From positions 1-64,000 of IMG/VR virus record IMGVR_UViG_3300042862_000066: a stretch of 64,000 bases of DNA; one strand, given 5' to 3'. Positions 7,323-48,769 of this stretch are shown piece by piece (the first letter of the stretch is position 1; each line of letters starts with the position of its first letter). Under the pieces are notes generated by a model, which made no database searches, was not told the origin of the DNA, and was given only the letters and a program-made list of their open reading frames with translations. This DNA is from a virus. The position numbers and the translations under genes were made by a program.

Positions 7323-7328
7323 AAATAT

Positions 7329-7889: not shown

Positions 7890-7897
7890 TATATTTG
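7866..7897 (+). promoter_or_regulatory. Bacteroidota sigma70-type promoter (-33 TTG / -7 TAnnTTTG)
   Basis: TTG at 7867-7869, 20-nt spacer, TATATTTG at 7890-7897, ATG at 7915. Confidence 0.6.
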
Positions 7898-7914
7898 AAA
7901 CTTAAAACCAAAGT

Positions 7915-8319
7915 ATGAAAAACATGTTATTAATCCATTCCAATTGGAAGGAAGCAAAGACATTCAAAATGATGCCTGTAGCAGATAACTGCCCGTATCT
8001 TGAATGTATTTATGATGGGCAACTTAAAGTGTTGGCTATTATCAGTAAAAATAAAAAGGATACATTCCATATGTTACCGAAGATTGATCCGAATGGTGAT
8101 CCAGAAATGCGTAAGACTCCGGGAAGAGATGGTAGTCCTTATAAGCAGGAGCGTCGTAGCCAAGAGACATACCAAGAGTATTATCTTGAGGACCTTCGTG
8201 ATATTCAGGAGTTCGTTACGATGTTTGCTGTTAACCATTCTACATTTCCGATAGATACTTATTTTTCTGAGGAAACAAATGTGACGGATGCAAACGTTCC
8301 TACCGAATCTGCTGAATAA
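7915..8319 (+). CDS. hypothetical phage protein
   Basis: 134-aa ORF after an A-rich leader. Confidence 0.7.
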   Translation: MKNMLLIHSNWKEAKTFKMMPVADNCPYLECIYDGQLKVLAIISKNKKDTFHMLPKIDPNGDPEMRKTPGRDGSPYKQERRSQETYQEYYLEDLRDIQEFVTMFAVNHSTFPIDTYFSEETNVTDANVPTESAE

Positions 8320-15874: not shown

Positions 15875-18800
15875 TTATCTGAAGTTTGTTGCCTTAACCA
15901 TATTAGTAACTCCCATATCAGGTGATAAAGTTTTACCGCTTAGACCCACTGATCTAAAAAAGTATGTTAATACCTTAGATCCATCTTCCTGCATCCAATC
16001 GTACGGTCCTTCTCTCTGATCAAAGTAAGCTTTAGAGTCATCTGTTCCAAATAGATAATGCGAAGCATGCGTTCCTAGTCCCGCTATAATCTTTTTATAG
16101 TTATCCCAAGTATTAGTCATTGATACTGACTCCATACTTAGCATGTCTATATAGTTATCTGCACCGTATCCCGGTATTGGTAACCATTGCATCGACTCGT
16201 TCTTTAACTGCATTGTCATATATAAGGAATGGTTAGTAAACCAACCTCCTAGATTAAATGGTTTTTCTTTATCGCTTACTCCTAAGAAGGGTAATGGTCC
16301 TGACCTAGCGCGAAGCTTAGCAAATTTATTTTTATCATCGTAATCAAATCCAAATAGCATTGAGATAGCCATCGTCATAGCGATTACTGTTGCTACGTCC
16401 ATAATAGTTTTAAGCATTGCTGATTTCTCAGTGTCGGATAAGAACTGGGTATATTCTCCTCTGGTCTTTATCATACGCCCTACAGCTCTGATTGCTTCTA
16501 AGTGAAATCCCATTGCTGTATCTCCTACTGCGGCATCAAATCTATATCTAGGATCTCTTATAGATCCACGGAACTGCCATCTGTTTAAGAACATGCGTAG
16601 GAACCAACGCTTAAATGCAATAGCAAATCGGAAGGCTACATATCTATCGGCTTCAGCATAGTCAAACTTAGCGAAGGAACCAGCAAGATTATTTACTACA
16701 CCCTGAACTCTATTCTTGAATGTTTTAAATTTAATTCCGCCTATGCCCCACTCTGGATCCACTCCTTCTTTAAGTTGGATCTGGCCATCTACTGTTTCCC
16801 ATGCATCGATATAAGCTATTCTTATTTTTTTACCATCGACTGTTCTCTCTACAGATTTTTCATGGTTCATCATGGCGCCGAAGATAGATAGAGTTGAATT
16901 CAATTCTGTCCATTTACGGAAACTTGTCATCCAGCTTAATCCTCCTAAGGCATCCTTAGTTAAAGATCTTGATCCATGCTCTACAAACTTGTCTTGGAAT
17001 CTTCCTTGATAAGCGTCAAAGATCTCAACTAACTGAGTATCATGGGACTTAGGTCCAAACTTATAGAGCTCTAAACTTATTTCCCAGCTTACTTTATTTG
17101 ACCAGGCTACACCTTTGGCATAGTTAACGTTGTTAAAGTATTTACCTCCGGCAGCTTCAATCATAGATTGGATGCGTAAACCAAAAGAGTTCTTTAAAGC
17201 TGATGGTATATCCATAGCAAAGTATCCGAAAGCTGATGCTCTCATGATATTGTCCGCCATTTTATGAATCCATACGTTATCACTATCCTGTCCAATAACT
17301 CCTTTATTAAGTCTACCTTCAAACTCCCTTTCGACAAAGTTATCAATAGCTTTTCCCCTTACCGATTTTTCTCCTTTTCCCACTAGCTTAGTACCTTTCT
17401 CCCACATGTTGCTGATGCTATAATTCTCAAGCATCGATTTATTTAAACCCTTTACTTGTCTTACTACATTCGCATCATCTGAGAGTACGCTTTGTAATGC
17501 TCTAGCCATAGGATTCATTTCTATAAGGGCTCTTTGCTTTTCAGCAGAGATCATATAGCGTAGCATACCGTTAGTTAGGTCAAGAGATACTTCCTTCTCA
17601 TCTAAATTTGATAAACCTGTAATAGGTATTCCAGCAAATTGATCATCAAACAAATCTCCTTTGAGCATTTCTTGCTGATTGTTAAACGAATAACCTCTAT
17701 CATAGTCATCCGCTGATCCGGCGAATAATGCTTTAGTACGTTTCCACCATGAGCTAATCGGGTTTTCCATTTTACCCTCTACAGTAAACATGTTAAGCTT
17801 AGCTTCATAACCGCTACGCATAAATCTAGGGATGTCTAAGAATAGCTTTGATGGATCAGGGTTACCTTCTTGGAATTCTAAATGCCATTTCATTAAAGCA
17901 ACTAATGCTCTATGTAATGGTTTATTATTTTTTGCTACATCAAAATACTTTTCGTTAACAAATCTCTTGTCCTCTGTATCAAGTTTTGGTAACCAGTTAC
18001 CCTTATTATCCATATTAGCTAGAGTAGGGTCTCCCTTCTCTAATGCTTCTAACATGGTTACAGGTGTGGTAATATAATCATCCTTAACTATACGGTCATA
18101 ATAATTCATGTTAGGTACAGAAGGAATAGTTTCAAGAACGCCGTCAGAGTTTGTAAACTCGTGGGTCTCTAGATATTCTGCAGTACGAGGCCTAGTTACG
18201 CTCCATGCCTTTACTCTTTCTACCTTAATATATTCATTGCCTTCTTTATCGACGGCCTTTTTCATGATATGGTTTTCTTTAAACCAATCAGCAAATTCTG
18301 TGTTCTCTTCCTCTAAGAAATTTAAAAATTCTTCAGTAAGAATTTCATTAGCATTTGTTTTAGTTATGCTTTTGAATTTAAACTTCTCCATCATCTTATC
18401 CATATCTACAAGACTCATATAGTTATTGATAATATCTAGGTAGTAGTCAGTAGGTAAAGATTGTTGAAGCTCTGCTAGGTCATCGTATAATTCATACAAC
18501 CTAGTTTTATCTCCCGCTGATAATCCAAATTTAGTTTTCTTAACTATAAGATCATTAGCTCTAAGTCTTTCTTCAGGAGTTATCTCTTCATCATTCTTAA
18601 GCTTAGCAAAGAAAGAACTAAGTTCTTCATGCTCCATTGAAGTTAAACCAGAAGCTTTTGCAATGTTCTGTTTAATAATTTCAATAAGAGCCTGAGTCTT
18701 TTTAATTTCATTTACGTTCTTAACATCCATCGCTGTAGCCTCAGGCTGCATGTCATCATCACGATATGGGCTCATCAATTGATTTAGCTTCTCATATTGT

Positions 18801-21601
18801 TGAGCTAAGTCAAGTTCTATATCGGGATCTTTAGGAAGTTTTCCTAATAAAGTTTTTATCTCATCAAGGATTTCTTTTTGTTTTGCATAGAACGTATCCT
18901 TGATTTTAATTCTAGTATTTTCGTTAAGCCACTTCTCTCTTAATTTTATAAAAGGAAACGTACCACGATCATATCCTTTTTCAATAAGGAACTCTTCGTG
19001 AGCTGCTAAAGAGTTTGTAAATAGATCCGGCAATAACTCCTCTCTATATAGTTCTCGTGAAATATTTCTAAACTCTCTAAGTCTTTCTGCTATAGCTTTA
19101 CCCTCTGCATCTTTAGGTTGACCAGTTGTTGTATAGTTAGAATGTAACTGACGATACTCTCTCCATAAACCTTGTAGTTCCTCCCCAGCATCTAATCGCT
19201 CAGGGGTAGTAGAAACTCCCATACCTGTAGTAAGATTTTGAATCTTAGCTAAGACTTCATTTCTAGCTGATTCAGCTTTTGATCCAATCTCATCATCCGG
19301 CCCTTTACGGAATACCTCATACCGAGCGTAGTATTCTTTAGTATAAGGGTTGTGAAAGTATTCTCTTTCAAACTTCTGAAGATCTTGCTTTAATTTTAAA
19401 ACTTCTGTAGTATCTCCAGATGCAATGGCTGCGACTTCGGCCGCACGGATGCTATCTCGCATTCTGTCTATATCAGCACGATACTCTTTAAACGGATTTA
19501 ATAAAGTATGTACTTGACGATTTTCAAATATACCAGTCTTAGGATCTTTAGATCCCTTATTATCTAGGAATGTTACCAGTTTTCCGAACGCTGCAGGGTT
19601 AGATTGATTATAACCTGCTGCCTCAAGTAGGGGTTTGACATTACTTAAGAAAGCATTACCTTTATTTTGTGCAGATGTAAATACATCCGTCATACGATTT
19701 TTTACGTAGGTAGCAAAACCAAATACCACAGGGTCTTGGTTATATATAAATCCTTCCAAGAAAGAGTTTAAAGCATGTGCATCTCCTAGACGACCTGTCA
19801 TTAAGTACTCTATCTTTTCATCTGTAAGATATGCTCCTTCTTTATAGCTGATATCTTTAAGTCTGTTATAGAGATCATCCTCTACAGCTCCTAATTTTTC
19901 ACCGGCTTCTACTCTTCCCTTTAATGCTAGGAATTGTCTTAGAGGATCTCCCGCTAATCCCCAATAATCTTTTTGGCGCATCTCAATTATATCCTGAGAC
20001 GCCCCTCTTTTTTTCAAGTCTTCCATGATGTCACTGAATCTTTGATCGATTCTTTCCCTCATTGGTCCGATAGTCTCTTTAATAACTTCTGATGTACCGG
20101 CTAGATAAATCTTGTTCGTATTGTTACGAGCAGTTTGTATCTCAGTATTGATAGAACCGATTAATTCAAATACAGGATTACCTGTCTCAACCTCTCCATT
20201 AGCAACTCCATCGTCCAATTTCTTTTGGAAGTCTCCTAGGAAATTGTCCCAGTAGTTAATGATATTATTATAATAGAATACAGTTGCTACATTGTCTTTA
20301 GAGTTCGGGTCTTTAACTAGGGTAACCAAGTTATTATTAAGACGACGGATCATATACTTTGTACGCAGTAAGCTATTAATAAAAGCCTCTGTATGTTTTC
20401 TAGCAAACTCCATATCCTTAGCCAGCTTTCCCATCTCACTAGTTAATTCTTGAGAGATGTCTTGGTAAGGTGCTAGGTTTTTATATATCTCTTGTAAGTC
20501 AGGGCGTTGGAAAGAATCTTTAAGGACCTCTTTCATTCCTGCATAATCTTTATTCTTTTCAAGAAGTCTTATTTGTTTTTTGATCATCTCAAAGAAAAGG
20601 TTTGTACTTTTCTGAAGATCGTTTTCTGAAAAAGACTTCATTGCTTTTACGTAGTCATTTACCTCAGTAAGGTATGCTGCTACGTCTTCTGATGTTACCC
20701 CTTCCAGGTTAATATCAAACTGTTCTACTACTAACATGTCAGCGAGTTCGCTAAGTGTGGTATCAGCTTTAAGGTTTTCTACCTTTAACTTTTCTTTAGT
20801 AGTACCAAATATCTTTCTGATTAATTGCTTTAATGCAAATAATAGATTGTTAATAAACTTATTAAATGCCGAGTCTTGTTTATCTACAGCTCCTTGTGTT
20901 AAAGCAATTACCAAAGCTTCTTCAAGAATAACATTGTCATTCTCATCTAGTGTAGGGTAAGCGGCTCTAGCAGTCTGAACTATATTAGCTCCTTGAGGAG
21001 TAGACATAAGTTCTTCTACCAACTTCTTGAAGAGAGCAGGGTTACTCATTTGTATAGCCCTAACAAGAGGGTGTGCAAATTCATGTAAGACAGTCTTCTC
21101 TGTCATCAATTCTGGTACAAGATAAACTTTTCCAGCAAAGAAAAATCCAGGCTGACCTGACCAAACGTTTACATTCTTAGTTATTTCTTGAGCCTCCTGT
21201 GCTGATACAAATACAGCGGGTACCCCTAAGTTAGAGCTTAACTGCATAGCCAATAAACTAGCAGTACTCTTTGCCTTAAGCGTTGCTTGTGATTTAGTAT
21301 CAAGCTTAATAGGATCTTTCATTACCCGGTATTCTGGAAACGCATTCATTACATCTTCGAAACCTGATAAAGCGTCGGTCATAACTACTTGTCGTCCCTC
21401 ATCATTCCATACATTTAGACGATCCATTAACTCCTTAAACTCTTCCTCTGTCGGAACTACGGGCTCCTGCCCCATAGGCAAGTCTTGATTCTTAATCATG
21501 AAAGCACGTAGAACTTCTGTAGAAGCGTTGATACCTAAGCCAATACTTTTAGCGTAGTCTGTTAATGAATTTAAGGAATTTGGTAAAGGGCAGGCGCTCA
21601 T
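15875..21601 (-). CDS. giant virion/ejection protein (1908 aa) with N-terminal zincin domain and C-terminal hydrophobic helix
   Basis: VLHEFAH (21071-21085)...EEALV; IMDVATVIAMTMAISMLFG near the C-terminus; directly downstream of the vRNAP as in crAss-like three-gene blocks. Confidence 0.75.
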   Translation of the reverse strand: MSACPLPNSLNSLTDYAKSIGLGINASTEVLRAFMIKNQDLPMGQEPVVPTEEEFKELMDRLNVWNDEGRQVVMTDALSGFEDVMNAFPEYRVMKDPIKLDTKSQATLKAKSTASLLAMQLSSNLGVPAVFVSAQEAQEITKNVNVWSGQPGFFFAGKVYLVPELMTEKTVLHEFAHPLVRAIQMSNPALFKKLVEELMSTPQGANIVQTARAAYPTLDENDNVILEEALVIALTQGAVDKQDSAFNKFINNLLFALKQLIRKIFGTTKEKLKVENLKADTTLSELADMLVVEQFDINLEGVTSEDVAAYLTEVNDYVKAMKSFSENDLQKSTNLFFEMIKKQIRLLEKNKDYAGMKEVLKDSFQRPDLQEIYKNLAPYQDISQELTSEMGKLAKDMEFARKHTEAFINSLLRTKYMIRRLNNNLVTLVKDPNSKDNVATVFYYNNIINYWDNFLGDFQKKLDDGVANGEVETGNPVFELIGSINTEIQTARNNTNKIYLAGTSEVIKETIGPMRERIDQRFSDIMEDLKKRGASQDIIEMRQKDYWGLAGDPLRQFLALKGRVEAGEKLGAVEDDLYNRLKDISYKEGAYLTDEKIEYLMTGRLGDAHALNSFLEGFIYNQDPVVFGFATYVKNRMTDVFTSAQNKGNAFLSNVKPLLEAAGYNQSNPAAFGKLVTFLDNKGSKDPKTGIFENRQVHTLLNPFKEYRADIDRMRDSIRAAEVAAIASGDTTEVLKLKQDLQKFEREYFHNPYTKEYYARYEVFRKGPDDEIGSKAESARNEVLAKIQNLTTGMGVSTTPERLDAGEELQGLWREYRQLHSNYTTTGQPKDAEGKAIAERLREFRNISRELYREELLPDLFTNSLAAHEEFLIEKGYDRGTFPFIKLREKWLNENTRIKIKDTFYAKQKEILDEIKTLLGKLPKDPDIELDLAQQYEKLNQLMSPYRDDDMQPEATAMDVKNVNEIKKTQALIEIIKQNIAKASGLTSMEHEELSSFFAKLKNDEEITPEERLRANDLIVKKTKFGLSAGDKTRLYELYDDLAELQQSLPTDYYLDIINNYMSLVDMDKMMEKFKFKSITKTNANEILTEEFLNFLEEENTEFADWFKENHIMKKAVDKEGNEYIKVERVKAWSVTRPRTAEYLETHEFTNSDGVLETIPSVPNMNYYDRIVKDDYITTPVTMLEALEKGDPTLANMDNKGNWLPKLDTEDKRFVNEKYFDVAKNNKPLHRALVALMKWHLEFQEGNPDPSKLFLDIPRFMRSGYEAKLNMFTVEGKMENPISSWWKRTKALFAGSADDYDRGYSFNNQQEMLKGDLFDDQFAGIPITGLSNLDEKEVSLDLTNGMLRYMISAEKQRALIEMNPMARALQSVLSDDANVVRQVKGLNKSMLENYSISNMWEKGTKLVGKGEKSVRGKAIDNFVEREFEGRLNKGVIGQDSDNVWIHKMADNIMRASAFGYFAMDIPSALKNSFGLRIQSMIEAAGGKYFNNVNYAKGVAWSNKVSWEISLELYKFGPKSHDTQLVEIFDAYQGRFQDKFVEHGSRSLTKDALGGLSWMTSFRKWTELNSTLSIFGAMMNHEKSVERTVDGKKIRIAYIDAWETVDGQIQLKEGVDPEWGIGGIKFKTFKNRVQGVVNNLAGSFAKFDYAEADRYVAFRFAIAFKRWFLRMFLNRWQFRGSIRDPRYRFDAAVGDTAMGFHLEAIRAVGRMIKTRGEYTQFLSDTEKSAMLKTIMDVATVIAMTMAISMLFGFDYDDKNKFAKLRARSGPLPFLGVSDKEKPFNLGGWFTNHSLYMTMQLKNESMQWLPIPGYGADNYIDMLSMESVSMTNTWDNYKKIIAGLGTHASHYLFGTDDSKAYFDQREGPYDWMQEDGSKVLTYFFRSVGLSGKTLSPDMGVTNMVKATNFR

Positions 21602-21602
21602 T

Positions 21603-24600
21603 TTAACATTTTTTATTTTGTTCGATTACATCGTCATCACTAATCGGTTGTTCTTTTTGTACAACTTTACGTCCTTCTGAGAACTGTAAGTAATGAGGAT
21701 TGACATAGCCAAAGTTACGGAATAATTGTTCTGAAAGATATAGGAATGTTTGTTTAGCAACAGGAGCAAACTTAGGATTTTTAGCAAGAGGTGTATTCTC
21801 TGTGTATCCCAGCATGTACTGACCATAGCCATATTGATCGAATACTATAAATCTATTTGGCTTAGCCATTTGATTTTTAATATTAGCAATTGCCTGATCA
21901 ATTATTACTTTGTTTTCAGCAAGTGTATCATCAGTAAGCGCATCAACTAAATTTATTTTATCGCTACCTACTTTAGTAGGCCTTGTTCCTTTCTTAGTTG
22001 GTAATCCTACGGCATTAGTACCTAGACCTCTCCATACAGTATTGGTCCCGGCTGTTCCGCCTTCACCAGTTGTTGTCTCATTGTATAGAACTAAAGCATT
22101 CGGGTAGTCTGTTTTAAAAGATGCCATAGTCTCGTCAGTAAGAACACCCGTCATAGGTTGTGATATTCCATCCTTCTTCTCTAATGCATATTTAAAGGTT
22201 CTGATACCAGTTCTTGGATCTTCCACAAGAGTTACTTGAGAAAGAGTTGTGATATCATCCGCTGTTCTAACCTCTGATTTAACAGGCATTTGTTTTCCAA
22301 ACTCCATATTCCAATCTAGTTCTGGAGCAACTCCTTCTGCAGCACCGGAAAGTACATAGGCAACATTAGTCGCTCTAGATAGTGCAACATATTTCATCTG
22401 GTTTCTTTCCTCGATGTCCTGAGATTTGCTTATAGAACCAAGATCAACAAAGATGTTGGTATAGGTAGCTCCTTGAGACTTATGAATGGTATGAGAATAC
22501 CCATAGTCCAAAGTCTTTTTAATTACTGTTCTACCTTGATGTTTAATCGCACGGTCTGTTCCGAATGATTCTTTAAAGGCATAGTAGTATCTCCAAAGAC
22601 TATTCTCAACCTTAGCTAAAGACGCAAGTTTTTGTGCTTGCTCCCCTAGGTTGTCATACAGAGAGTCTTCATTGTTTCTACTTAACATAAATACTTCTAC
22701 AGGTTTAGCTCTCTTGTCAGAAATATCTTGGATTACAAGTTTGTATCCTGATCCTGAGTATGGCTGTAGTCCTGCGGCTTCTACAACATTTTTTGCAATA
22801 GGCTGATCCTCAACGTATTCTGCAGAAAGTACTACATAGTCTACTGAGTTATTAATATCATACTCGCCGTTTTTATTTTTTTTGTAGTTATCGTAACCCA
22901 TCAAAATTTCTCCAGGTACATACTCTTCAGTATAGCCTAATCCTTGACGTACTGCATTGTTATATTGCGGAACTCTTTCGTTAAGATAAGTAATAACTCT
23001 AGTGAAGTTTCTATTAGCTTTAAAGTTATCCGATCTAAAAGCATTAACAGCTGACTGTATAAATGATTTACCGCTGTCGTTAAATACGATACCTTCATTA
23101 CCATTAAGCGCTGTTCTGTGAGCGAACGCATCCTTAGTAGCATGTAGATTACCTCTAAGCGCATCTAAGATTGGGCCTAACGGATTACCAGTTGCTTGTC
23201 TTTCGACCTGAGTCAATTCAGATTTATTAGAAACCTCTCGGAATACTGGGGAATTTTCTTTTAATGTTACTTCATCAGAAGTTGAATTTGGTGCGACAGG
23301 TTTAATCTGTGCAGGGTCTCCTACAAAGATTACTTGTTGACCATCCTTCTCGGCCTTGTCTTTTATAAACTCGAATAGATCAGGGCCTATAAAAGATGAC
23401 TCATCTATAATAATAACATCTGCTGGTATAACGGGCTTCTCTTTAGCAGGAGACATGTTTAATGTATCCAAGTCTACTCTTGCTGGGTCGATGTTAGGAG
23501 CTAAAGATAAAACCGTATGAATAGTTTTAGTTTTTCTACCTACCGCCTGGGCTAGTACTCCTTTTGCTTTATGTGTAGTAGCAGTAATATCTACGCTCTT
23601 ACCAGCTTTATTTAAATAGTCTAATAAGATTTTAGTGATACTTGTTTTACCAGTACCCGCATAACCCATAAGAGTATACATGTTGTCCTCAATCGCTGAG
23701 TTCTCGTCAAAACCTTTACCTATAAATTCAGCAATATTATTAAGGGCTTCTACCTGTTGAGAGTTAGGTTGGAAACTAATACCAAGAGTATCTAGGTTAA
23801 TTGGTATTCCTCCTACTTCTATAGTTCTTGAAACACCTTCTTGATCTACGTCAACCTTTTCTGTTTCAACAGCAATCTGAGCTATAGGATCAAGATTAAT
23901 AATTCTATTTTTTCCTTCTCCTAATACAAGAGCATCTTTAGAAACATCCTCAGTATAGTTTTTAACCTTCTTGCTTAGAAAGTTATCCTTAGAATACTGA
24001 TCAGTAAACAAACCGGTGTAACTAGTAACTATAGCTTGTTGCTCAGGGACTGACTTGTTTATAAAATCGTTATAAGGTTTTTCTAATAACAAGGTTGTCA
24101 TCTCTGTAGGCAATGCTCTTACCATACTATAAGTAGTCTTAAGATCTGTACCGGTTTGTATCATTGAGAACAATGCAAATCTTTGGAAGATCTTTGAGAT
24201 GTTTTCGTTATCGGTAGGGTCACTTACTTTAGATACACTTGGGTTAGCAAGGTCTTGTAAGTTATTATGATAAACGTTTAGATCGTCAGATGTAAGTAAG
24301 GTATTAGCGAACTTTACATTTGTAATTGTAGTTGTACCATAGGGTTTTGTAAATGCTTCTAGGTTTGAAAGTATCGGGTATGTTGTAAACAATTCTGGAT
24401 ACTTAGCCTTGATACCTAATACTTGTCTACCGTAAGCACGTTCCCCATAGAACATATGACCGTGGTAGTTCAAGTTATCTAAAGCCCTGTCGCGTAACAC
24501 AGCCTCGTATGCTTTTTGATTACGATACGGTTCTGATTCGTCTACGTTAAAAGATTTAAAGTACTTATTAAATTCTTCAGTAGCTTTAATAGCGTCTTCA

Positions 24601-33600: not shown

Positions 33601-33956
33601 TCTACCGCAGGATTAGTATCTACTCCTAGGAAGGCAGCAGTTTCATCAAAGCCGTCTTTATCATCAGCTACTAGTCTAGCTAGTCCTCCCACCTCTCTTA
33701 TATCTAAACCAAGGTCTTCAAGTTCTGCAAACTTTTCTTCTACGCCCCATAGTTGTTTTATGAAAGGTATAGACATGCGAGCATAGTCGATTGCTGAGTT
33801 CTGATTATTTGTAAGACCGTATACACGGTTATACATATCATTCAGATACGTCTTTAGATCAAATGGAGTTTTATTTTCCACATAAGTCAAAAGATCCTTC
33901 GCAATTTTAGTACGAAGGATCCTTAATTGTTTATCGCTAAGAGTACAAGTAATCAT
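21603..33956 (-). CDS. virion-packaged two-barrel RNA polymerase (crAss/phi14:2 gp66 type), 4117 aa, fused to zincin domains and a RecD/Dda-like SF1B helicase
   Basis: ADGQGW, RIPVQGLNS, catalytic GGDFDIDK (DFDIDK at 26430-26447), VDVAKD; HEYQH (31578-31592) and HEAWH (31077-31091); helicase motifs GYAGTGKT, DESS, GDPAQ, QVERQ, TIHKSQG, YVALSRA. Confidence 0.9.
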   Translation of the reverse strand: MITCTLSDKQLRILRTKIAKDLLTYVENKTPFDLKTYLNDMYNRVYGLTNNQNSAIDYARMSIPFIKQLWGVEEKFAELEDLGLDIREVGGLARLVADDKDGFDETAAFLGVDTNPAVELAKTKEELTIQDQIDKVQTSLALGSSNTVYGRTRKPDSPLSTSIQELLEGKEENGSDPRMKFYTNFTKDVLSKLLAGEAKTPEQGVPYKGVDGGLFLTLMRYNEIDVNDTYPHVASVIKSGVDTDYIIEDYKNAFVYALTDKQGNIVRLNDKYEVAEDGKVVYYNSRYLPSKTKDGAADVDRVTNTQNPQEIAKNFNMSVDEAREYLRQGFDFLESAYDYIRGAKGNKIINSIDFGSFGAISDIDAKPIPYSGSYFGKQNLNFSFFAPGAVSKNSFGGIYVTPNETNTPVPIINKSLSDELVNNIVSLILDVDTDTAGEIITNADKKKIIGTYVLSSVKDISYGVDSSTGEFFVKYQGEKLNLSNTAKSREELTAAFKTNAKGRGREYVIDTAKASANGMVSMFTITGDKASITNVPYSEYLESFATVKVDLDVEGKVKQYNPYFKVAPINADTAKVIVESKDIISDKDYTKFVDKNIVSDIILDIIANKVINKETLSPRETAIFTGKTGEINAIIAKSAKVSAKDTKVAEYRAEEQKELLKAIPNIENYKIDGKIDKTKMSAAELEAYEKIYEKYDDLISPLLGIKKETYNGIPVIDRSSIKAATGEPGAARYDRTNNKIIINREFLKKKFEEKAWTKSRKQKDGSFATALAEDAFATYQDFENFVMEHEYQHSLLTYEQSGATTVGAYEDIINDRAFKKLAIKADNQPATTEVVTEAPVVEKPAATEVVVNEATKQQVFRRRKTSADSDILDKLSGDDEFINKNKNKLKIQGNVTATREQIAAAKTWYENSPLRQHIPFKVMFNAVNTATKNGIARWDVNGITLFKGSDYSDLYHEAWHGFTQMFLTEVEREKLYSEARKQKGKFVAFSGNTVEFAKATEEEIEEYLAEDFREYMLGNKKPVAKSPVKRNIFQKIFDFLMELFGKTRSEDILTNGGNSSYVNEMYEKLRVGDLNQYTFNQANRVFTTLNSNRTVQSTTPQELRDPSKLSYEDSRLIGSTIDALFSQAIDKLNGSGTKTFTTSVIRTVAGRATAYKYAEQKLTEALYNAILDRNDMVAEGFDIQDIDYEIDMLSYALRHFGDPNNLAKPEGVIKYHMENSKFMQFEDRQLAELEGMDDSKLSLKNEFEAKSGNESSAKALASPTLLYTIRSLYAYEKDGSVRLNKLGFPMLMDYNAAWNRIYNITDGARNIDDVYNMLSAASEDYPMIKQFLQKVGPPSTMERTSQELWTEITQIMTMKRIPLVSLHMGLANEYKDEEEIQQDEINQTAGSTVKTTLSITPVRAGGEYRKVGSKWDNAFAIAPEGDFIVLSKDNVNSLNIKAVMAKHGNLLSKKNLDGLFSFMEDIGMPLEDNATTRKAMLSSEDETFKAIYDLHRHLKFGIYTYNNTVGAKNPIVITRPSQLFAKYKVNTNDRLLKAMLGGIAPKFTAIQKFQLKWSDDFSDTTVSNAEGENQYEKSLRGTLMNQIDSINGADTITALTQEGVEGATDLSMNHLAKSRNPFMKSSKFMARLFTKDGEKAIWRNSYGDTIKAEIQLLNMSGASFETKSVKNIIDRSGVASASADAMTKTLQDLYMMMLYGVSEGTRHADKSTTYLYRLITGDPNDFGNAENKIRHLITLSDFSKKTQNGQSLGKIQFIKDLTQHLGSEYERIQKVQSEKVAGNALVGNDTYKKVGSEFVIFDKILNSNTKTALKKYSEKGIATQEQFLAELNNDVELREQVETQIGKYLTSQVSEFNKELNKVDFYNNSALVDPLLEKMLGEKEYSNRISAERKQELIDSIAEAYVANSWQQNLETVLMFYGDPGLYNHAKDEFFKRNAGIGATGGIPRTDLYMQDYINARLSANSLASKFGYTPKKFGKTMVSAVMEDPITKSVYHADYVKSAVAYTKKRLKDRGASEEQIERAVKDITKRFSEYEKMTEADGQGWINFDAYRALLMSLNKWTTNQESLYNKIINGEEITEDLLQFFPVKKMQYWGPLKTDGLPLYAFHKYSLMPLIPNLIQGKNLEALQKKMLEQGVDYALLNSGSKINTLTKNGTADKFYKDASSNRDKTLAIDEEGYEFTPNEIFMDYFKDQLEVHDHFNEKVTFSTQLRKLIEDGLMENGVPTDWRPDIKDATERVLAWEQALESGQEIDSKNYTKLLKYEANLARLVEIKKDQLRKEIGNNMEDLIAFVKRELTRQELAEHELNFIDYDGQTGELKNSLELSLSVDKIEKLLVGVIQKRLINQKINGEALVQVSGVGFEDANKNMRNATEKEIKQYGTNGLTFYEEILDENKNVIGTKAIKVKISLQGSFKNLLKRDDVLKKAQQDGTTPLKALNTLIKQESWLSDGDNRAMVTMVAARIPVQGLNSMEFMEVFEFLPEESGNIVILPAEIVAKSGGDFDIDKMFTMMPNIKAVVKTVSDSTLESLSEEMGRKVTRDEIKNIFKMMEFENPLSEDEQTIYDFIENFGTEQTIVSLAKGDNVKGIENALIADSVDILSMPENFINLITPNGTDILKPIANTMAEQIRGEAPGSKKSPTEIFELGRNLYKHQANSVGKAVLGIIAVNNTFNTLFARTGLVMDTTRILTTDGKGQPVFMTQELYLPHNEIDNKISLSSAYSADLSNRVADIINQMINGAVDVAKDAWIFDIQGNKEVIPSLLFMIQAGVPVKQAVYFVSQPIIRDYIELQRKLKSQFAVPVGYKDVGMFYRIEARNTILFESGDFTATPGEYLNDKGRYDKSKVFNLLREYASQPSLFDENNLETNMKASRLAGYTEADKAVFAHFVEIQEMAGQVTQLTQALKFDNDKTSTLWDARMKLEKMETVSNGISRESIRKIADESPISAFKIQDFIIEQYNRLFPLRDSQAMNATLNYVYAKQKDGLVPIMGIKKKTGQDDETFQRTFRNDLMSFLFQQDYYNFSTNPTTYQGKDVSRDVREVTSLTSGVAIKGDKIYADYATIKNLFESGAYSNPLQWETSAPVDQTVFDFYDEKTGLKLFTKFLFERETLRSYAENSEDAIKATEEFNKYFKSFNVDESEPYRNQKAYEAVLRDRALDNLNYHGHMFYGERAYGRQVLGIKAKYPELFTTYPILSNLEAFTKPYGTTTITNVKFANTLLTSDDLNVYHNNLQDLANPSVSKVSDPTDNENISKIFQRFALFSMIQTGTDLKTTYSMVRALPTEMTTLLLEKPYNDFINKSVPEQQAIVTSYTGLFTDQYSKDNFLSKKVKNYTEDVSKDALVLGEGKNRIINLDPIAQIAVETEKVDVDQEGVSRTIEVGGIPINLDTLGISFQPNSQQVEALNNIAEFIGKGFDENSAIEDNMYTLMGYAGTGKTSITKILLDYLNKAGKSVDITATTHKAKGVLAQAVGRKTKTIHTVLSLAPNIDPARVDLDTLNMSPAKEKPVIPADVIIIDESSFIGPDLFEFIKDKAEKDGQQVIFVGDPAQIKPVAPNSTSDEVTLKENSPVFREVSNKSELTQVERQATGNPLGPILDALRGNLHATKDAFAHRTALNGNEGIVFNDSGKSFIQSAVNAFRSDNFKANRNFTRVITYLNERVPQYNNAVRQGLGYTEEYVPGEILMGYDNYKKNKNGEYDINNSVDYVVLSAEYVEDQPIAKNVVEAAGLQPYSGSGYKLVIQDISDKRAKPVEVFMLSRNNEDSLYDNLGEQAQKLASLAKVENSLWRYYYAFKESFGTDRAIKHQGRTVIKKTLDYGYSHTIHKSQGATYTNIFVDLGSISKSQDIEERNQMKYVALSRATNVAYVLSGAAEGVAPELDWNMEFGKQMPVKSEVRTADDITTLSQVTLVEDPRTGIRTFKYALEKKDGISQPMTGVLTDETMASFKTDYPNALVLYNETTTGEGGTAGTNTVWRGLGTNAVGLPTKKGTRPTKVGSDKINLVDALTDDTLAENKVIIDQAIANIKNQMAKPNRFIVFDQYGYGQYMLGYTENTPLAKNPKFAPVAKQTFLYLSEQLFRNFGYVNPHYLQFSEGRKVVQKEQPISDDDVIEQNKKC

Positions 33957-36900
33957 TATTCGCAGCCTAAAGAGTTATCAAATTCGTCGTCAATTTCTTT
34001 CTGGTCAGCAGCCTTAGCTTTTTCTAAGTCTGCATTAATTGCATCGACCCCATTTACATCTACAGCGTTACTAACATTAGTATTAGAGTTCTCTACTTCA
34101 TCTGGAGTTACGGTTACCCCTGTTGGGATATTTTCCGCATTCTGTCTGTACATATACTCTACACCGTTTTTAAGATCAGTTGGGTTCAATATCATAGTTT
34201 CTTCTGAATTAAGCGGTTTAATTCTAATAGTATTGTCTGAGGTATTCTTTCCGAGTACTTGTACAATACCACTTCTACCGTATTTTTTTCTGTCTTTCAT
34301 TACCAGCAAGTCGTTCTTGCCTACTTCTTCAAAGGTAGGAATTTTTGAGGACAATTCCTGCATTTTTTTATTCATAAGTTTGGTAAAGTCCTCGATAGAT
34401 AGACCCTCATCCTCTGCCATTAAGTTGGTAGTATTGTTACGGATATCTTCAAGTTCTTCCAAAGTTGTGGCGTCCTCAATGCTTTGTTTAACCTTACCTT
34501 TTATTCTTTCTTTTACTGTATAAGTTTTGGCCTTACCTGTAAGTACATCACCAACTTGTTCAGTAATTTCAAACATCTCGATGTTTTTACTAACCTTTGC
34601 TTTCTTAGCACCTAATTCGTAAGATCTAATATTAGCTACAGCTTTTTTACCTAAGGCCTCTTCAATGACATCATCATTTTTATTTATGAGAATCATGTCA
34701 GCATTCTTGGCAAATCGTCCTGATGTTGTAATAACCGTGTTACCAGCATCAGCGGCTGCTTGCATTCTAGTAAGAGTCTCTGCGTAAACCTCAGCTGCTT
34801 TTTTACTATCTGACTTAAATAAACTAAATAGAACGTCGCCTAGATTTTTATCTCCTACAGCAATACCGTTGTCTGCTAATACCTCTTTAAAGATATCATC
34901 TGTGTTTATTACATCTTCTCCTAAAGCACTGACATCCATATTGTTATGGACGGTGGTATAGATAATCTTACCCTTAAACTTACTTTTTACTTTGCTCTTA
35001 GGCTTATTTCCTTTCTTATGTGCATCTATAGCAGCCATAGCCTGTTCTTCAGTATCAAGATATTCAGCTATGATCTCTCCGTCTTTGATAACATTATATG
35101 TATCATCGTTGTAAAGATAAACTGTGTATCCATCTACTTCTTTTTGTTCTTTTACAGCACTTGGATCAACAGTAACAGGTGCTCCAGTCAAACCATTTCT
35201 TTTATTATAGTTAGCTATAACTCTTGCTGCTCTTGGTTCACGTTTAATATAACGAGATATATCACTGTCAGGAATAATTGGTTTATTATTAGCAATCTGT
35301 TCCTGGTTAAATAGCTTAAGATCAGCTCTAAGAATTGTTTGCAAATCCTTAGGCATTTCATTCATAGGGGTATCTACTGTAATAGCTTGTCCACCTGCAG
35401 TAGTTGTAGGTGTAATTACATTAGACTCTCCTTTTGAAAGTATAGGATTACCTTGGAACTTATTAGATATGATACCAACTGCCTCATCTAAAGCACTATT
35501 ACTAGAAACTTTTTTAAATCCTAGAAGCTTACCTAAGAATTTTCTGATCTTGTCTACAAGCTCTGTCCAAAGATTCTCATTGGTTTTTTCATACGGGATA
35601 GCATTTAAAGCATTCTGTGCCAATGGGTTAGTCAGGGCCTCGGCCATAAACTTCTCAGGACTTGCGAGCATTGTATTAAATACAGCAACGTCATTAGGGT
35701 CTGTTAAAGAATCTTTGTTTGCTTCTCTAAATGTAATCGCAGCATCCATTAATCCTTTAATAGCTTTTGAGAAAGCTGGGTCTGATAACCCTTCTTCTGT
35801 CATCTTCTGGATCAACGGATTTAATACAGAGTATTCAAATGCAACTTGGATGTCTCCAAAGTCTGATGCTGAGTAACGTAAGTCTACGATTATTCCATCA
35901 TTCTTAGAATAACTAAATGCGATAGGCTGAGTTGTAGAGATTTCCATCTCCTCCTCAGGTTTAACAAACGTAAGCATTCTACGGGCTAATGCTCTTGCTG
36001 CAGGCTTACCGTATCTGTTCGCTATAATATAATCTAGTACGTCAGATGTTTTAACCATCTGAGACTTAAGCTTAGGATCTAATCCTAGGCCTTTCATTAA
36101 ATCTCGTAAAGATCGTTTGTCGTTCTTTGATTTAAAATCATATGCTCTAACAAAAGACTCGGCGCCCTCTTCTGCAATTACTTTACCCGCTAGGTTAAAT
36201 CCATTCTCTTCTTCAAAGTCTTCTAGGAAGTCAAGGATCTCTTTATATCTAGGGCTATTTGTTTCGATAGGTTTTTTAGTCGCAGCATCATAAAATGTAG
36301 ATGGTACTCTTTCGCCGCGCATCAAAGCGTCTATTTCATCAGGCATAAAGAATACGTTAAACTTTTCGTACATCTCACGGATAAGGTCATTAACCTTCAT
36401 TCTGTTTTCAAACTCGCTAAGAGACTCCTGTAATTTTTTAGCAGCAATCTGATGAGCTGCTCTAGCAGCACCACTAAACTTTTTAGCCGACTCTGAAAAA
36501 TACATAGGATCATTAAGAAGGTTAACCATCATACTAGCAGCTTTTGAATCTACATCAAGCTCTAGATAATCTTCTAGCATACCGTATACTCTGTCTATGT
36601 CTGTAGCAAGAAGAGGCTTTCCTCCTTTTGCTGAAGCAGCGGCAAGAACCTTTAAGTAGTTTTCTAAGTCACCTCGCATTTCTTTTTTAAAGTAATCTAC
36701 GTGACGAGATGCCGCGTCAGACTCCTCAAAATTTAATTCAGTTTGTCTTGTAGCTCCTATTATAGTTAAAGACTTAGAGTTAACACTTACTTCTTTTGTT
36801 TTAGTATTACCTTTTGCATCAGTATATTGAATAACAACCTTGTTATTCTTTTTGCTAATAATCTTACCATTAATAGGTTTACCAGCTTTACCTTTATAAC

Positions 36901-39619
36901 TAACTGTTGCACCTACATCTAACTTCTCAACTGTTTCAACAGTATCTCTAATCTCAGTTGCTGTCTCAGGATTAACTGCAGCTTTTCTAGCTTTCTGCAC
37001 TTCTAAAGAATGGTTAATCATACTATTCTTTAAACGATTTAAAGCATCAAAGGCTTGTTGCTTTTGCTCACCAATAGCCTGTTGTTTAGCATCACCTTGT
37101 TTGAAGATGGCTATTTCCCCCTGTAAAGATTCTAGTTCGGCGTCTAGCTGTCCTTCATTAAATATGCTACTAATTCTACCGGCTGTAACTTTTGATAAGA
37201 TTGGATCCTCAGCTATAGTATTTAAAATACCTCCCATTCTACTCTGAGATCTATCAAATGTATATTCGTTATAGATAGCTTGTTTCCTTGCTTCTTCAAA
37301 ACCAATATAATCTATTCTCTCATCTATATCATCAGCGTCAACGCTAAATGGATTATTAATGCTAGAATATTTTTCATGACGCTCTTTAATCTGAGTAGCT
37401 TTATCTAATACAGCATCTAAACGTCCTCTTACATCTTTATTAAATTCATCTTTATTTCCTGACTCGGATGTATAGTTAAATGCTTCAGCAAGTTCTTCAT
37501 CGCTCATTCCTTGGTAATCCTCAATCTGATTTGTAAACAGATCGGCGTATCCCTTATTAATAAGCATTGATACGTGAGAGAATATAGAATCTTGTACAGC
37601 GTCTCCGTGTTCTTTCTTATCTCCGTTGTCTTCAGCGCGATCCATAATCTGAGAGAAATCCTTCTGCGCTTTAATATTGGCGTAGATAGGATCAAATGTT
37701 TTAGTAGGATCTGCCGCAAGATCATTTAAGAAAGTAGTAATCTTAGTTCTTTGTTCTTCTTTTTCTTCTCTCTGTCTTTGATATTGCTCAGGATTCTTAT
37801 ACTTATCGTACATATTTTTAGCGGCCTGAGGAGCTGCCTCAAATGCTAAAGACTGAGGACCTTGTACCAATCCTCCCATTAAGAAACCAGAGAAGAAAGT
37901 CTCAGCACCTTTTGCAGATAGCTGGCTTTTAAATCCTTCATTTAATGAGTCCATGAAGAAAGCAGTTCCTGCTCTTTCTGGACTAGCATATGTATCAAGG
38001 TAGTAGTTTGTCATTGCTTCAGATACGCCTTCTTGATAACTTTCTTGAAGACCCTCTGCAAGATTAGCTGACATATATCTTAAACCATTCTTAGCAAGAT
38101 TCTGAGGTCTAAACTGATTAACGGTATGCTTTAGATATTTTTTACTAAACCAACTTCTAGGATTAGAGGTGTCAATAAATCCTGCATATTTGCCACCGGC
38201 CTTCTTAGAAAAATTCTCAACCATCTTACCTAAGTTACCAGTTGGAATATTTCTAAAAGCTTTAAATCCTCCTAATGCTTTTTCGAATACAATTTTGTTA
38301 GAGAAAAATATAGCCGGGGCATTTGCTAGAGTAGTTTGTACACCAGCAGCTTTAGCTTGTTTAGCAATATCCTCGGCATCTTGTCCTATAGGAGCTTTAC
38401 CATTTTTAGTAATGTACTCTTGAATCAATTTATCTTGAACACCGTTTTGAACCATACCGCCCTCTAATCTAGATTCAGCTAGAGTCGTGTTCATCATTCT
38501 AAGGTCTCTATAGAAGCCGCCAAATGTTTTAGATACCTTGGCAAATTCGCCCATCTTATCAAAACCGTTTGCCCCAGTAGAAATGTTTTTTAATACATCT
38601 ACTGTATTATCAAGAGGATTCAAGAAGTTTCCTACTCCTCCCCAGAATTTTCTAGCGCTACTTATATTATTAAGACTATTACTTGCTGTACTCATAGTGC
38701 GGCCAGCATCTGTAACGTTCAATCCTGCACGAGTAATATCAGCTGCATTTTCAGCAGCCTTCATTCCTCCAAATAGTCCTTTAACAGCTTTTGTAAAACG
38801 ACCAGCATTTACTGCGGTTCTCCCAGCGGCTGCAGCATCAGATACAGGATTTAATCCTCCTTGTAATGCTGCCGCTCCCCATAGAGCTATTTCTTCTGCG
38901 GCTATCTCTCCGATTACTCCAAACGTATATGCAGAGTTTGCATATAGGTTAGTAGCAAATCCTCCAAATCCTTTTCTACTAGAGTTAGCAATAGACATTG
39001 CCTCTTCCATTTCTCTAGCATACTTAGTATCGCCAGCAGTATTTAAACTAAATAAGTCATCCCAGTTACCGAAGGTTTGTTTAAAACCCATTCCTGCTAG
39101 AGTACCCCATTGACTAGAGGCCCTTTTAAAGTCGTCCCATGCTGTACTATTTTGATTATAGTAAGCCTCATTATCTATATAGGGATTCCAACCAAGTTGC
39201 TTAAACTTTGGATGGTTATAATATCTATCAAAGTTATGTTCTTTTCCTGCACCGCTTGATATACCCCATACCTTTGCTGATTCTACAGCAGTAGGTTTAG
39301 CAACAGCTCCAGGACGGTAGGTGTTAGATACTAATTGATTCATTAAATCAATAGTACCATTCCCTTTACTACTAGGACCTTTAAAAGATGCTTGACCTGA
39401 TCTATAGGGATCATAACTATTTGGCCCCAAGTTTTTAGGAATACCGTTTGGTATCATGTTCCCAATACTGGAACTTCCCATTATCTCATCTACCCCTTGT
39501 TTTATCCTAGGTAGATCCTGATCCATTCTAGCCTTAGTCTGACTAAGTAATGTTAAGTACTGATCAATAGGATCTCCCTTTGGAGGAGTTGCGGTCATCA
39601 TATCAGCGGCTGATCTCAT
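33956..39619 (-). CDS. giant virion/ejection protein (1887 aa) with Gly/Ala-rich membrane-like segments
   Basis: Directly upstream of the vRNAP (TAATG overlap); AEGLQE and FFSGFLMGGL segments resemble podovirus DNA-transfer proteins. Confidence 0.7.
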   Translation of the reverse strand: MRSAADMMTATPPKGDPIDQYLTLLSQTKARMDQDLPRIKQGVDEIMGSSSIGNMIPNGIPKNLGPNSYDPYRSGQASFKGPSSKGNGTIDLMNQLVSNTYRPGAVAKPTAVESAKVWGISSGAGKEHNFDRYYNHPKFKQLGWNPYIDNEAYYNQNSTAWDDFKRASSQWGTLAGMGFKQTFGNWDDLFSLNTAGDTKYAREMEEAMSIANSSRKGFGGFATNLYANSAYTFGVIGEIAAEEIALWGAAALQGGLNPVSDAAAAGRTAVNAGRFTKAVKGLFGGMKAAENAADITRAGLNVTDAGRTMSTASNSLNNISSARKFWGGVGNFLNPLDNTVDVLKNISTGANGFDKMGEFAKVSKTFGGFYRDLRMMNTTLAESRLEGGMVQNGVQDKLIQEYITKNGKAPIGQDAEDIAKQAKAAGVQTTLANAPAIFFSNKIVFEKALGGFKAFRNIPTGNLGKMVENFSKKAGGKYAGFIDTSNPRSWFSKKYLKHTVNQFRPQNLAKNGLRYMSANLAEGLQESYQEGVSEAMTNYYLDTYASPERAGTAFFMDSLNEGFKSQLSAKGAETFFSGFLMGGLVQGPQSLAFEAAPQAAKNMYDKYKNPEQYQRQREEKEEQRTKITTFLNDLAADPTKTFDPIYANIKAQKDFSQIMDRAEDNGDKKEHGDAVQDSIFSHVSMLINKGYADLFTNQIEDYQGMSDEELAEAFNYTSESGNKDEFNKDVRGRLDAVLDKATQIKERHEKYSSINNPFSVDADDIDERIDYIGFEEARKQAIYNEYTFDRSQSRMGGILNTIAEDPILSKVTAGRISSIFNEGQLDAELESLQGEIAIFKQGDAKQQAIGEQKQQAFDALNRLKNSMINHSLEVQKARKAAVNPETATEIRDTVETVEKLDVGATVSYKGKAGKPINGKIISKKNNKVVIQYTDAKGNTKTKEVSVNSKSLTIIGATRQTELNFEESDAASRHVDYFKKEMRGDLENYLKVLAAASAKGGKPLLATDIDRVYGMLEDYLELDVDSKAASMMVNLLNDPMYFSESAKKFSGAARAAHQIAAKKLQESLSEFENRMKVNDLIREMYEKFNVFFMPDEIDALMRGERVPSTFYDAATKKPIETNSPRYKEILDFLEDFEEENGFNLAGKVIAEEGAESFVRAYDFKSKNDKRSLRDLMKGLGLDPKLKSQMVKTSDVLDYIIANRYGKPAARALARRMLTFVKPEEEMEISTTQPIAFSYSKNDGIIVDLRYSASDFGDIQVAFEYSVLNPLIQKMTEEGLSDPAFSKAIKGLMDAAITFREANKDSLTDPNDVAVFNTMLASPEKFMAEALTNPLAQNALNAIPYEKTNENLWTELVDKIRKFLGKLLGFKKVSSNSALDEAVGIISNKFQGNPILSKGESNVITPTTTAGGQAITVDTPMNEMPKDLQTILRADLKLFNQEQIANNKPIIPDSDISRYIKREPRAARVIANYNKRNGLTGAPVTVDPSAVKEQKEVDGYTVYLYNDDTYNVIKDGEIIAEYLDTEEQAMAAIDAHKKGNKPKSKVKSKFKGKIIYTTVHNNMDVSALGEDVINTDDIFKEVLADNGIAVGDKNLGDVLFSLFKSDSKKAAEVYAETLTRMQAAADAGNTVITTSGRFAKNADMILINKNDDVIEEALGKKAVANIRSYELGAKKAKVSKNIEMFEITEQVGDVLTGKAKTYTVKERIKGKVKQSIEDATTLEELEDIRNNTTNLMAEDEGLSIEDFTKLMNKKMQELSSKIPTFEEVGKNDLLVMKDRKKYGRSGIVQVLGKNTSDNTIRIKPLNSEETMILNPTDLKNGVEYMYRQNAENIPTGVTVTPDEVENSNTNVSNAVDVNGVDAINADLEKAKAADQKEIDDEFDNSLGCE

Positions 39620-42600: not shown

Positions 42601-42831
42601 ACGCTTTATCTCATTATCTAACCCCGTAAAGAATTCATTACGACGTTCGATGTTAGGTTCCCGCATCAAGTCAGAATTTAACAACTTGCCATATACGGAG
42701 CTGATTTTATTATAACCAGCTTCATACTGACCTTGCTTCGTTTCCAAAGCTTTTTGAAAGAAGTTAAAGTCCGGCTGAAAAGGCTGGATCTGAGGGATGT
42801 AATCTGTTAGTCCTTGTATGTACGTTGCCAT
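39616..42831 (-). CDS. putative internal virion protein (1071 aa)
   Basis: Long Cys-free ORF coupled to the giant-protein operon; N-terminus MATYIQGLTDYIPQIQPFQPD. Confidence 0.6.
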   Translation of the reverse strand: MATYIQGLTDYIPQIQPFQPDFNFFQKALETKQGQYEAGYNKISSVYGKLLNSDLMREPNIERRNEFFTGLDNEIKRLSGVDLSLPENVQTASKLFQPLIDNDYFRADMSFTKRYRGEKSKADRLRNNPNPKDKGVTAWDVGDRALDYQAEDFAKSSDEDSLNFAAPKYSPFVNATKDLFEFAKANDLNPETLSKQGGYIIKTTNGPQSIPTLQNVFSSLIVNDPRIKDMYSAQAYVDRKNYMKTNAEKFGGDEMAAETEYLKTKVDEINTFYRAQNQTDTETKDKTKTTKKVLEKKIQTEGVDPDLDKDIVEMYRQVVKDEQVIDAVTEKNDEVLSQTDAIDFDAMDRQGLRYRVDNAMTYFLMDGLVTTTARDYAMSKMKVDSEVDQYALAATNHRYRVIEEGIRFDNDKTLKIMDIAGKMYENGGNTVPGSGSGAGWLSDMFNQGILTKIPGPGNVSGDTNISQQNAGKLNNLFTANTSYAQNNMDQYLAIQNARLKNAATPEEKTLIEQEINSTLGLYTEEDKTTYENVEAPAWYNPLADVDLTTYNKSVIEGSGISWRDQKMMQLANWLAPTVEKVVPKTEKVYKGGLVKKNDKGEYELYADGLKNTTDPNHNDYYLKVNDRINLALHNGFNGIDKNNPSLVQIQNRIDANNGEMLSNIAVLDKYTAIQKENNQKIASQISGISNVDSWHSGQYFTSDFGRAKTEDEYLTDYIEAHKNDEQYYPRTEQGGYQRADTFSISEEDRIADMREDAIDKYEDLTEAYETLSKNNTSGLEIKAFSDPSLLGGLNKYFGEAATYNFDPAAYNTNSFSIAMDAYTKDMLPAMQSESFRNQQGSKFVYGNGFDITAGDYANLENDGSAQNALNFMMQTAMLNYGGKPDQNPNRPSGQFTMHALAANDATKVAMTWKPSRSFINENKGTDDLHGATWDLAAKVAAGQSPEITFFMDADKVKSVGFLSMQQTKEEFLVDNGGLELNNYNQYGGNIQFAKNATGGYSYTGMAKAFNAAGQLVQQPIFGTTYEDINALSNTYNEMFSGLSMANQRFLQSASANSGNKVYDANQLLENQ

Positions 42832-42863
42832 ATCTTATTGTAAAAATACGAAAAAAAATCTTT

Positions 42864-42880
42864 AAAGTTTAATAAACTTT
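42864..42880. promoter_or_regulatory. imperfect palindrome AAAGTTT-AAT-AAACTTT upstream of the ejection-protein operon
   Basis: Intergenic inverted repeat, with another AAGTTTA half-site at about 42883-42889. Confidence 0.35.
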
Positions 42881-42892
42881 TTAAGTTTAAAT

Positions 42893-45817: not shown

Positions 45818-45819
45818 AT

Positions 45820-48729: not shown

Positions 48730-48769
48730 AAGCTGCTAAGATAAGCATTATATTATAAGATACTGATTT

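Follow-up and report, generated by a model that had tools for sequence, protein, structure and literature searches.

The window analysed here comprises the first 64 kb (positions 1 to 64,000) of IMG/VR virus record IMGVR_UViG_3300042862_000066, a 119,397-bp viral record that is rated complete. Its most conspicuous feature is a trio of very long genes, A, B and C, which follow one another on the minus strand between positions 15,875 and 39,619 and whose products, probable injected cargo of a crAss-like phage, are nearly devoid of cysteine (Cys). The original prediction, made by eye from the sequence alone, was that the three are ejection proteins joined head to tail through the few Cys at their ends. 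The genes and the Cys codons are listed below, with protein lengths in amino acids (aa).

33956..39619, minus strand: gene A, 1887 aa, first member of the proposed chain; sole Cys at residue 1886; no family detected
21603..33956, minus strand: gene B, 4117 aa, phi14:2 gp66-type two-barrel virion RNA polymerase fused to a superfamily 1 (SF1) helicase; its two Cys are residues 4 and 4117
15875..21601, minus strand: gene C, 1908 aa, last member of the proposed chain, homologue of phi14:2 g065; sole Cys at residue 4
33962..33964, minus strand: Cys codon TGC, residue 1886 of A, penultimate (...LGCE-stop), from translation
33945..33947, minus strand: Cys codon TGT, residue 4 of B (MITC), from translation
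21606..21608, minus strand: Cys codon TGT, residue 4117 of B, the final residue (...NKKC-stop), from translation
21590..21592, minus strand: Cys codon TGC, residue 4 of C (MSACP), from translation

Translation of the open reading frames (ORFs) yields exactly four Cys in the 7,912 residues of A, B and C together. The manual scan had arrived at the same four; no internal Cys had been overlooked, and the codon positions it had given are all correct. The absence of an N-terminal Cys from A and of a C-terminal Cys from C, also noticed at that stage, is confirmed by the translations. The stop codon of A and the ATG of B share one base (TAATG), and a single base lies between the stop codon of B and the ATG of C. 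The remaining 127 non-overlapping ORFs of the genome contain 361 Cys in 29,596 residues, or 1.22%, a rate that predicts about 96 Cys for the trio. A Cys occurs within residues 2–10 in 6 of these 127 ORFs and among the last 11 residues in 18 of them. The Cys pattern of the trio exceeds chance.

The same pattern is found in homologous proteins. Three protein searches recovered 56 homologues of B, 50 of A and 55 of C, down to 24–25% identity. A Cys is present in the first 10 residues of 53 of the 56 B homologues and in the last 11 residues of 54, and the five exceptions are truncated gene calls that are identical to or collinear with full-length, Cys-bearing proteins; in a 20-sequence alignment of B (alignment A1) both C4 and C4117 are invariant columns. 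All 55 C homologues have a Cys at residue 3–8 and none has one at the C-terminus, and 47 of the 50 A homologues have exactly one Cys, placed 0–7 residues from the C-terminal end, with an N-terminal Cys in 0 of 50. Internal Cys number 14 in 212,237 residues for B, 0 in 91,695 for A and 5 in 110,329 for C.

In order to follow whole loci, viral contigs were scanned with an alignment of 20 B homologues, a query that did find relatives where B as a single protein had found nothing. Of 565 pattern matches, 406 were confirmed as relatives, and the best 80 of these represent 78 loci, which fall into 63 clusters when the polymerase core is grouped at 95% identity, 55 at 80% and 36 at 60%. With B taken in each locus as the longest plus-strand ORF, an N-terminal Cys was found in 62 of 63 complete starts of B and a C-terminal Cys in 73 of 73, while the upstream ORF ends with a Cys in 57 of 57 cases and the downstream ORF begins with one in 73 of 73. 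The sole N-terminal miss, locus L072, has a Cys-bearing start just upstream of a frameshift; this frameshift (7650–7850 of that locus) parts the first ~52 codons of B from the rest; it may reflect an error in sequencing or be a genuine break. The free ends carry none: an N-terminal Cys is present in 0 of 47 first members and a C-terminal Cys in 0 of 71 last members, nor is there a C-terminal Cys in any of 35 proteins directly upstream of the chain. The N-terminal Cys is residue 3 in 50 cases, residue 4 in 38, residue 5 in 8 and residue 6 in 2, and the C-terminal Cys lies 0–9 residues from the end, mostly 0–3. Internal Cys amount to 27 in 527,016 residues of the locus proteins, and neither a conserved His nor a second conserved Cys was found near the termini. 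In three loci (L064, L072 and L074) B and C are separated by 735–814 nucleotides (nt) and the Cys pair is still present. The original prediction had proposed a comparison of orthologous trios, and there the Cys are confined to the facing termini, with one on both sides of every scorable junction of the 78 loci. That Cys occur only at facing termini, in gene order, is thus strongly supported by sequence comparison.

Eleven GenBank records of named phages were scored as well, of which 9 fit the rule and 2 are ambiguous. In phi14:2, g067 has the terminal Cys, g066 has only Cys3 and Cys2179, and g065 has only Cys3. In crAss001, gp47 has one Cys, 2 residues from its end, gp49 has only Cys5, and gp50 has Cys5, a Cys 8 residues from its end and one internal Cys; DAC15 obeys the rule too. 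The A-type gene of both crAss001 and DAC15 is on the strand opposite to B and C, not beside the start of B, and keeps its C-terminal Cys; the A–B Cys pair is therefore not a by-product of the DNA at a gene junction. p-crAssphage, cr271_1, cr50_1, cr1_1 and Fpv1 have two giant proteins with a single Cys pair between them. The terminal Cys are kept alike in the gut crassviruses and in the relatives of the window (L009–L086). A separate observation concerns lone Cys located 1–7 residues from the C-terminal end of upstream virion proteins, as in p-crAssphage gp47 and gp48 (L006), crAss002 gp30 (L007) and the first ORF of locus L044; two of these share an R-C-G-G ending, and in all three loci the protein that follows each has no N-terminal Cys.

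The relatives differ in how the chain is divided into genes, and the Cys follow the division. In p-crAssphage gp44 and crAss002 gp33 the first half aligns with crAss001 gp50 and a region near the end with gp49 and g065, and on these alignments the two proteins are fusions of B with C; a Cys pair is missing from the joint, and a C-terminal Cys is missing too. In cr50_1 gp059 and cr1_1 gp076 the polymerase core has upstream of it a segment similar to the C-terminal portion of gp47 (E 4e-9 and 6e-12, respectively), by which they are A+B fusions, and they lack both an N-terminal Cys and any Cys near the joint. Only in its size does Fpv1 agree with an A+B fusion; A-likeness of the N-terminal ~1,700 aa of its gp33 was not confirmed by BLASTP. 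Division has also gone the other way. Four loci have a fourth member with Cys at both its ends (574 aa in L030, 754 aa in L031, 515 aa in L070 and 501 aa in L079). The 574-aa protein of L030 and its 1934-aa neighbour are collinear with the single C-type proteins of 2340–2738 aa in L032, L060, L050, L038 and L084, and these single proteins have no Cys where the L030 pair is split. Judged from the sequences, then, breaks in the chain come with a Cys pair and unbroken stretches have none, and the break points are not homologous to each other. The first 64 residues of the extra member of L079 (501 aa, 6471–7976) are 44–45% identical to the N-termini of C-type proteins in L035, L045 and L048, which hints at a portable, Cys-bearing N-terminal module.

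B and C were identified by homology. B matches PDB 6vr4 (phi14:2 gp66) with E 3.3e-21 in a PDB sequence search, and phi14:2 g066 and crAss001 gp50 with E 7e-16 and 5e-19, respectively, by BLASTP. C gave no match to g065 by BLASTP alone; its alignment A3 matches g065 with an hhalign probability of 98.1% (E 1.2e-13, 473 columns). The following features were located within the two proteins.

26433..26447, minus strand: DFDID, RNA polymerase catalytic motif, B residues 2504–2508 (sequence and alignment A1)
31077..31091, minus strand: HEAWH, a zincin-like HExxH motif, B residues 956–960; H956, E957 and H960 invariant in alignment A1
22356..23774, minus strand: Dda/RecD-like SF1 helicase domain, B residues 3395–3867 (PHROG 325, E 1.9e-80; Pfam AAA_30, AAA_19 and PIF1; PDB 9kwf and 3upu)
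21071..21085, minus strand: HEFAH, a zincin-like HExxH motif, C residues 173–177; H173, E174, H177 and E228 invariant in C alignments A3 and A4

A motif of the DFDID type is named in the phi14:2 preprint (10.1101/2020.03.07.982082). B is a gp66-type polymerase with the DFDxD motif and as such belongs to the RNA-polymerase cargo block of Crassvirales, and C is its g065/gp49-type downstream partner with a zincin-like motif. The match to 6vr4 together with DFDID bears out the label of virion RNA polymerase that B had been given at the outset. The broader label of ejection proteins is based, for B and C, on homology to phi14:2 virion proteins and, for A, on position. No family was found for A in PHROGs, Pfam or the PDB sequence search, and A has no BLASTP match to g067 or gp47 (hhalign probability 12%), though its position, size and Cys pattern agree with theirs; its place in the cargo block is argued from these three, because significant similarity to g067 or gp47 is lacking. 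For C the PDB sequence search was empty, and PHROGs and Pfam gave only a sub-threshold match to PriC. Searches of GenBank phages with the window DNA, protein A and protein C returned no matches.

A predicted fold of residues 1–450 of C, built from the C alignment A4 (unconnected with the phage A4 discussed below), has a mean predicted local distance difference test (pLDDT) score of 70.9, with residues 1–3 below 50, and matched nothing in the PDB at E ≤0.001 by Foldseek. Co-folding of B residues 3900–4117 with C residues 1–450, from single window sequences only, gave no answer (score 0.02, mark 0.34). The polymerase giants of the relatives (B homologues P0003–P0053) vary in their accessory domains, which include a 2OG-Fe(II) oxygenase (PF13532), DUF1768/NADAR (PF08719), kinase-like domains (PF13671 and PF06414), PF25176 and PF05127. 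This variety resembles that of the phage 'polyvalent proteins'.

The trio corresponds in gene order, sizes and terminal Cys pattern to g067-g066-g065 of phi14:2 and to gp47, gp50 and gp49 of crAss001, although B of the window is of nearly double length, with an added helicase and HExxH module. According to the preprint of Drobysheva et al. (10.1101/2020.03.07.982082), gp66 of phi14:2 accompanies the DNA into the host, and the particles contain g065, g066 and g067. By the account of Bayfield et al. (PMC10172136), gp47, gp49 and gp50 were detected in crAss001 particles by mass spectrometry. Disulfides have been seen in crAss001 particles, in the tail. Strong Cys suppression in a giant virion RNA polymerase and its partners is also known from Schitoviridae, whose ejection proteins (N4 gp50, DEV gp71-gp73) are described in PMC11445570 with passage through the envelope invoked by the authors as the reason. 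The Schitoviridae proteins, however, are essentially without any Cys, termini included, whereas the trio keeps four terminal Cys that are conserved.

The closest structural counterpart is found in the cyanopodophage A4 (Anabaena phage A-4L), where the cryo-electron microscopy (cryo-EM) structure of the pre-ejectosome has a disulfide between gp27 Cys1715 and gp26 Cys5 inside the capsid (PNAS 2025, PMC12002296). The A-4L record shows that these Cys are the only ones in gp27 (1717 aa) and gp26 (1114 aa). The likeness to the trio lies in consecutive, otherwise Cys-free ejection proteins with a lone Cys 2 residues from the C-terminal end of gp27 and another at residue 5 of gp26; the trio has just such lone facing terminal Cys. 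The bond of A4, as reported, joins gp27 to gp26 head to tail in gene order; for the trio such a bond is a prediction. A4 differs in belonging to another phage family with a 42-kb genome, in having one link, and in that the linked pair includes no virion RNA polymerase; neither A nor C has similarity to gp27 or gp26 by BLASTP (E above 1 in both comparisons). The A4 paper treats the bond as a stabiliser of a single assembly and states no general rule (PMC12002296). In A-4L (L087), gp28, the ejection protein upstream of the linked pair, has only two Cys, arranged as C-x-x-C, 19–22 residues from its C-terminal end. The device itself has one known structural example, in an unrelated podophage. As far as our searches reach, a chain of several links with the virion RNA polymerase among its members, kept across crassviruses and their relatives and tracking gene architecture, has not been described: the word 'cysteine' is absent from the text of the crAss001 paper (PMC10172136) and of the phi14:2 preprint (10.1101/2020.03.07.982082), and full-text literature searches, which do not cover supplementary files, found no earlier description of crassvirus cargo cysteines.

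From the sequence pattern we consider it probable, with considerable room for doubt, that A, B and C are polymerase-associated cargo of a crAss-like phage, tied end to end through their sole cysteines, most likely by disulfides, this being the likeliest chemistry because the A4 structure has a head-to-tail disulfide of exactly such geometry. The links would run from Cys1886 of A to Cys4 of B and from Cys4117 of B to Cys4 of C, and would form inside the particle, after its exit from the reducing environment of the cytoplasm. Joined in this way, the three polypeptides would act as one linear, equimolar unit, a 'virtual polyprotein', and in relatives with fused genes a peptide bond would stand in place of the Cys link. 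Because each Cys lies within about 0–9 residues of a chain end, a link leaves only short side stubs, and a chain with such stubs could still be threaded through a narrow channel. Reduction of the links would follow in the host cytoplasm, upon which the polymerase-helicase, the protease-like and the other modules would come apart. The bond in this phage, the A-B-C topology, the ordered threading and the release by reduction are what we infer from the pattern. In the chain as originally proposed, the pairing of facing termini in gene order has stood, through the 78 loci, the cultured crassviruses and the fusions and fissions; the particular pairing is one of several that the Cys counts fit equally well.

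Among the other readings of the pattern, one holds that the facing Cys share a metal ion, or that a terminal Cys serves as a 'cysteine switch' that caps the zinc in a zincin-like protease domain of the next protein downstream, which would stay latent until ejection. Invariant HExxH motifs in B (956–960) and C (173–177, with E228), the presence of HExxH in B and in most C-type proteins of 55 cluster representatives, and a zincin-like protease domain that gp65 orthologues hold according to the phi14:2 preprint (10.1101/2020.03.07.982082) speak for such a role. The motif is not found in the Cys-receiving protein at every junction, however, being absent from the downstream protein in L030 (574 aa), L070 (515 aa) and L079 (501 aa) and from the C-type proteins of ~1100 aa in L064, L072 and L074. 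Where it is present, its distance from the N-terminal Cys ranges from about 120 to 1500 residues; the termini offer no conserved His or second Cys, and in A4 the same geometry is that of a disulfide (PMC12002296), so that we regard this reading as unlikely. Disulfides could also pair the Cys in another order, with the middle members cyclised and A linked to C, or with copies of the same protein linked to each other. All counts (a C-terminal Cys in the first member, an N-terminal one in the last and both in the middle members) fit these topologies, and several copies of each cargo protein per particle have been suggested (Bayfield et al., PMC10172136). Homotypic links, on the other hand, leave unexplained why the N-terminus of the first member (0 of 47) and the C-terminus of the last (0 of 71) are free of Cys, and why both junction Cys are lost jointly on fusion, and the link reported for A4 is heterotypic and joins consecutive gene products (PMC12002296). 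The variant with a cyclised B is compatible with every result obtained. Taken together, pairing in another order appears improbable to us.

That the terminal Cys serve each protein separately, as a signal for packaging or processing, as a site of acylation or in contacts with portal or tail proteins, and that their facing arrangement is a by-product of polyprotein ancestry, finds some encouragement in the suggestion of the phi14:2 preprint (10.1101/2020.03.07.982082) that the fused forms are cleaved polyproteins, and in p-crAssphage gp47 and gp48 and crAss002 gp30, which end with a lone Cys whose partner is not evident. The fused forms, though, are without the junction Cys, so the Cys is not the cleavage determinant in them; both junction Cys always occur together in the 78 loci and the free ends never carry one, and separate roles are accordingly given a low weight. 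Least credible, to the point of being negligible, is that the Cys are due to chance or are encoded incidentally by some nucleotide-level property of gene junctions that are tightly coupled. In the window both Cys pairs do lie ≤20 nt from a junction at which the stop codon overlaps or abuts the next start codon, but the C-terminal Cys is kept in crAss001 and DAC15, where A is on the opposite strand and away from the start of B, the position of the Cys (3–6 from the N-terminal end, 0–9 from the C-terminal end) and its flanking residues vary, L064, L072 and L074 keep the pair despite their wide B–C gap, and about 96 internal Cys would be expected. The opposite-strand A genes, the variable flanks, the wide gaps and the Cys expectation refute both chance and a DNA-level cause.

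A number of points weigh against the disulfide-linked chain. The Cys counts by themselves are equally compatible with other pairings, and for crassviruses the disulfide chain is argued from the sequence pattern and from analogy with A4. Only its position places A in the cargo block. The gut is a largely anoxic habitat for phages, and spontaneous oxidation is for that reason less obvious. Thioredoxin and glutaredoxin genes were searched for in this genome and none was found; the search for Erv1/Alr was uninformative, as its control matched in no genome. Three of the 50 A homologues (P0096, P0099 and P0103) have no Cys whatsoever and may be real exceptions to the rule. Among the named phages, IAS virus is ambiguous in its bases where the genes meet, cr108_1 has a gp54 that lacks a terminal Cys and a gap of 290 nt, and crAss002 agrees with the rule only when gp33 is taken to start 32 codons further downstream. 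In crAss002 (L007, 17088–17190) an in-frame ATG 32 codons downstream gives M-S-C, resembling p-crAssphage gp44, and the annotated start of gp33 is probably 32 codons too far upstream. Strict avoidance of Cys is not universal either, because gut crassviruses tolerate several internal Cys (7 in p-crAssphage gp44, 14 in cr271_1 gp48 and 9 in the 2159-aa ORF of IAS; L006, L005 and L091, respectively), more than the relatives of the window with their 27 in 527,016 residues. Finally, the cargo of crAss001 is not resolved in the published reconstruction (PMC10172136).

Crassviruses have to pack, order and deliver a polymerase-associated cargo of about half a megadalton per copy set. If the disulfide-linked chain is real, a reversible covalent tether would explain why the proteins are equal in stoichiometry, how they leave in order and how domain boundaries can be shuffled freely among these genes, and a remark on the single structure of A4 would become a general principle of protein ejection. 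In a further, tentative extension, which we hold to be possible but doubtful, the cargo would be a redox-cleavable 'virtual polyprotein' in which disulfides replace peptide bonds, so that genes may split, fuse and gain modules while the products still leave in a single thread that follows the gene order and holds equal numbers of each; the reducing cytoplasm of the host would cut the thread and thereby activate the polymerase, helicase and protease-like modules, and the device would have arisen independently in, or be anciently shared with, other podophages such as A4. In practical terms a Cys-tipped end could serve as an annotation rule, marking a member of an ejected chain and aiding the placement of start codons.

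Beyond the trio, the adjoining part of the window contains a further run of proteins without Cys.

39616..53933, minus strand: five Cys-free proteins upstream of A (1071, 974, 969, 454 and 1275 aa; 4,743 residues), 0 Cys each

These five have no PHROG or Pfam family. They sit between gene A and a virion structural protein of 1743 aa with 18 Cys, and are probably further internal or cargo proteins, which would lie outside the chain because they lack terminal Cys. At the other extreme, a 492-aa protein (62095–63573, minus strand) for which no Pfam or PHROG family was found is encoded among the virion genes and has 25 Cys (5.1%), which makes it the most Cys-rich large protein of the genome.

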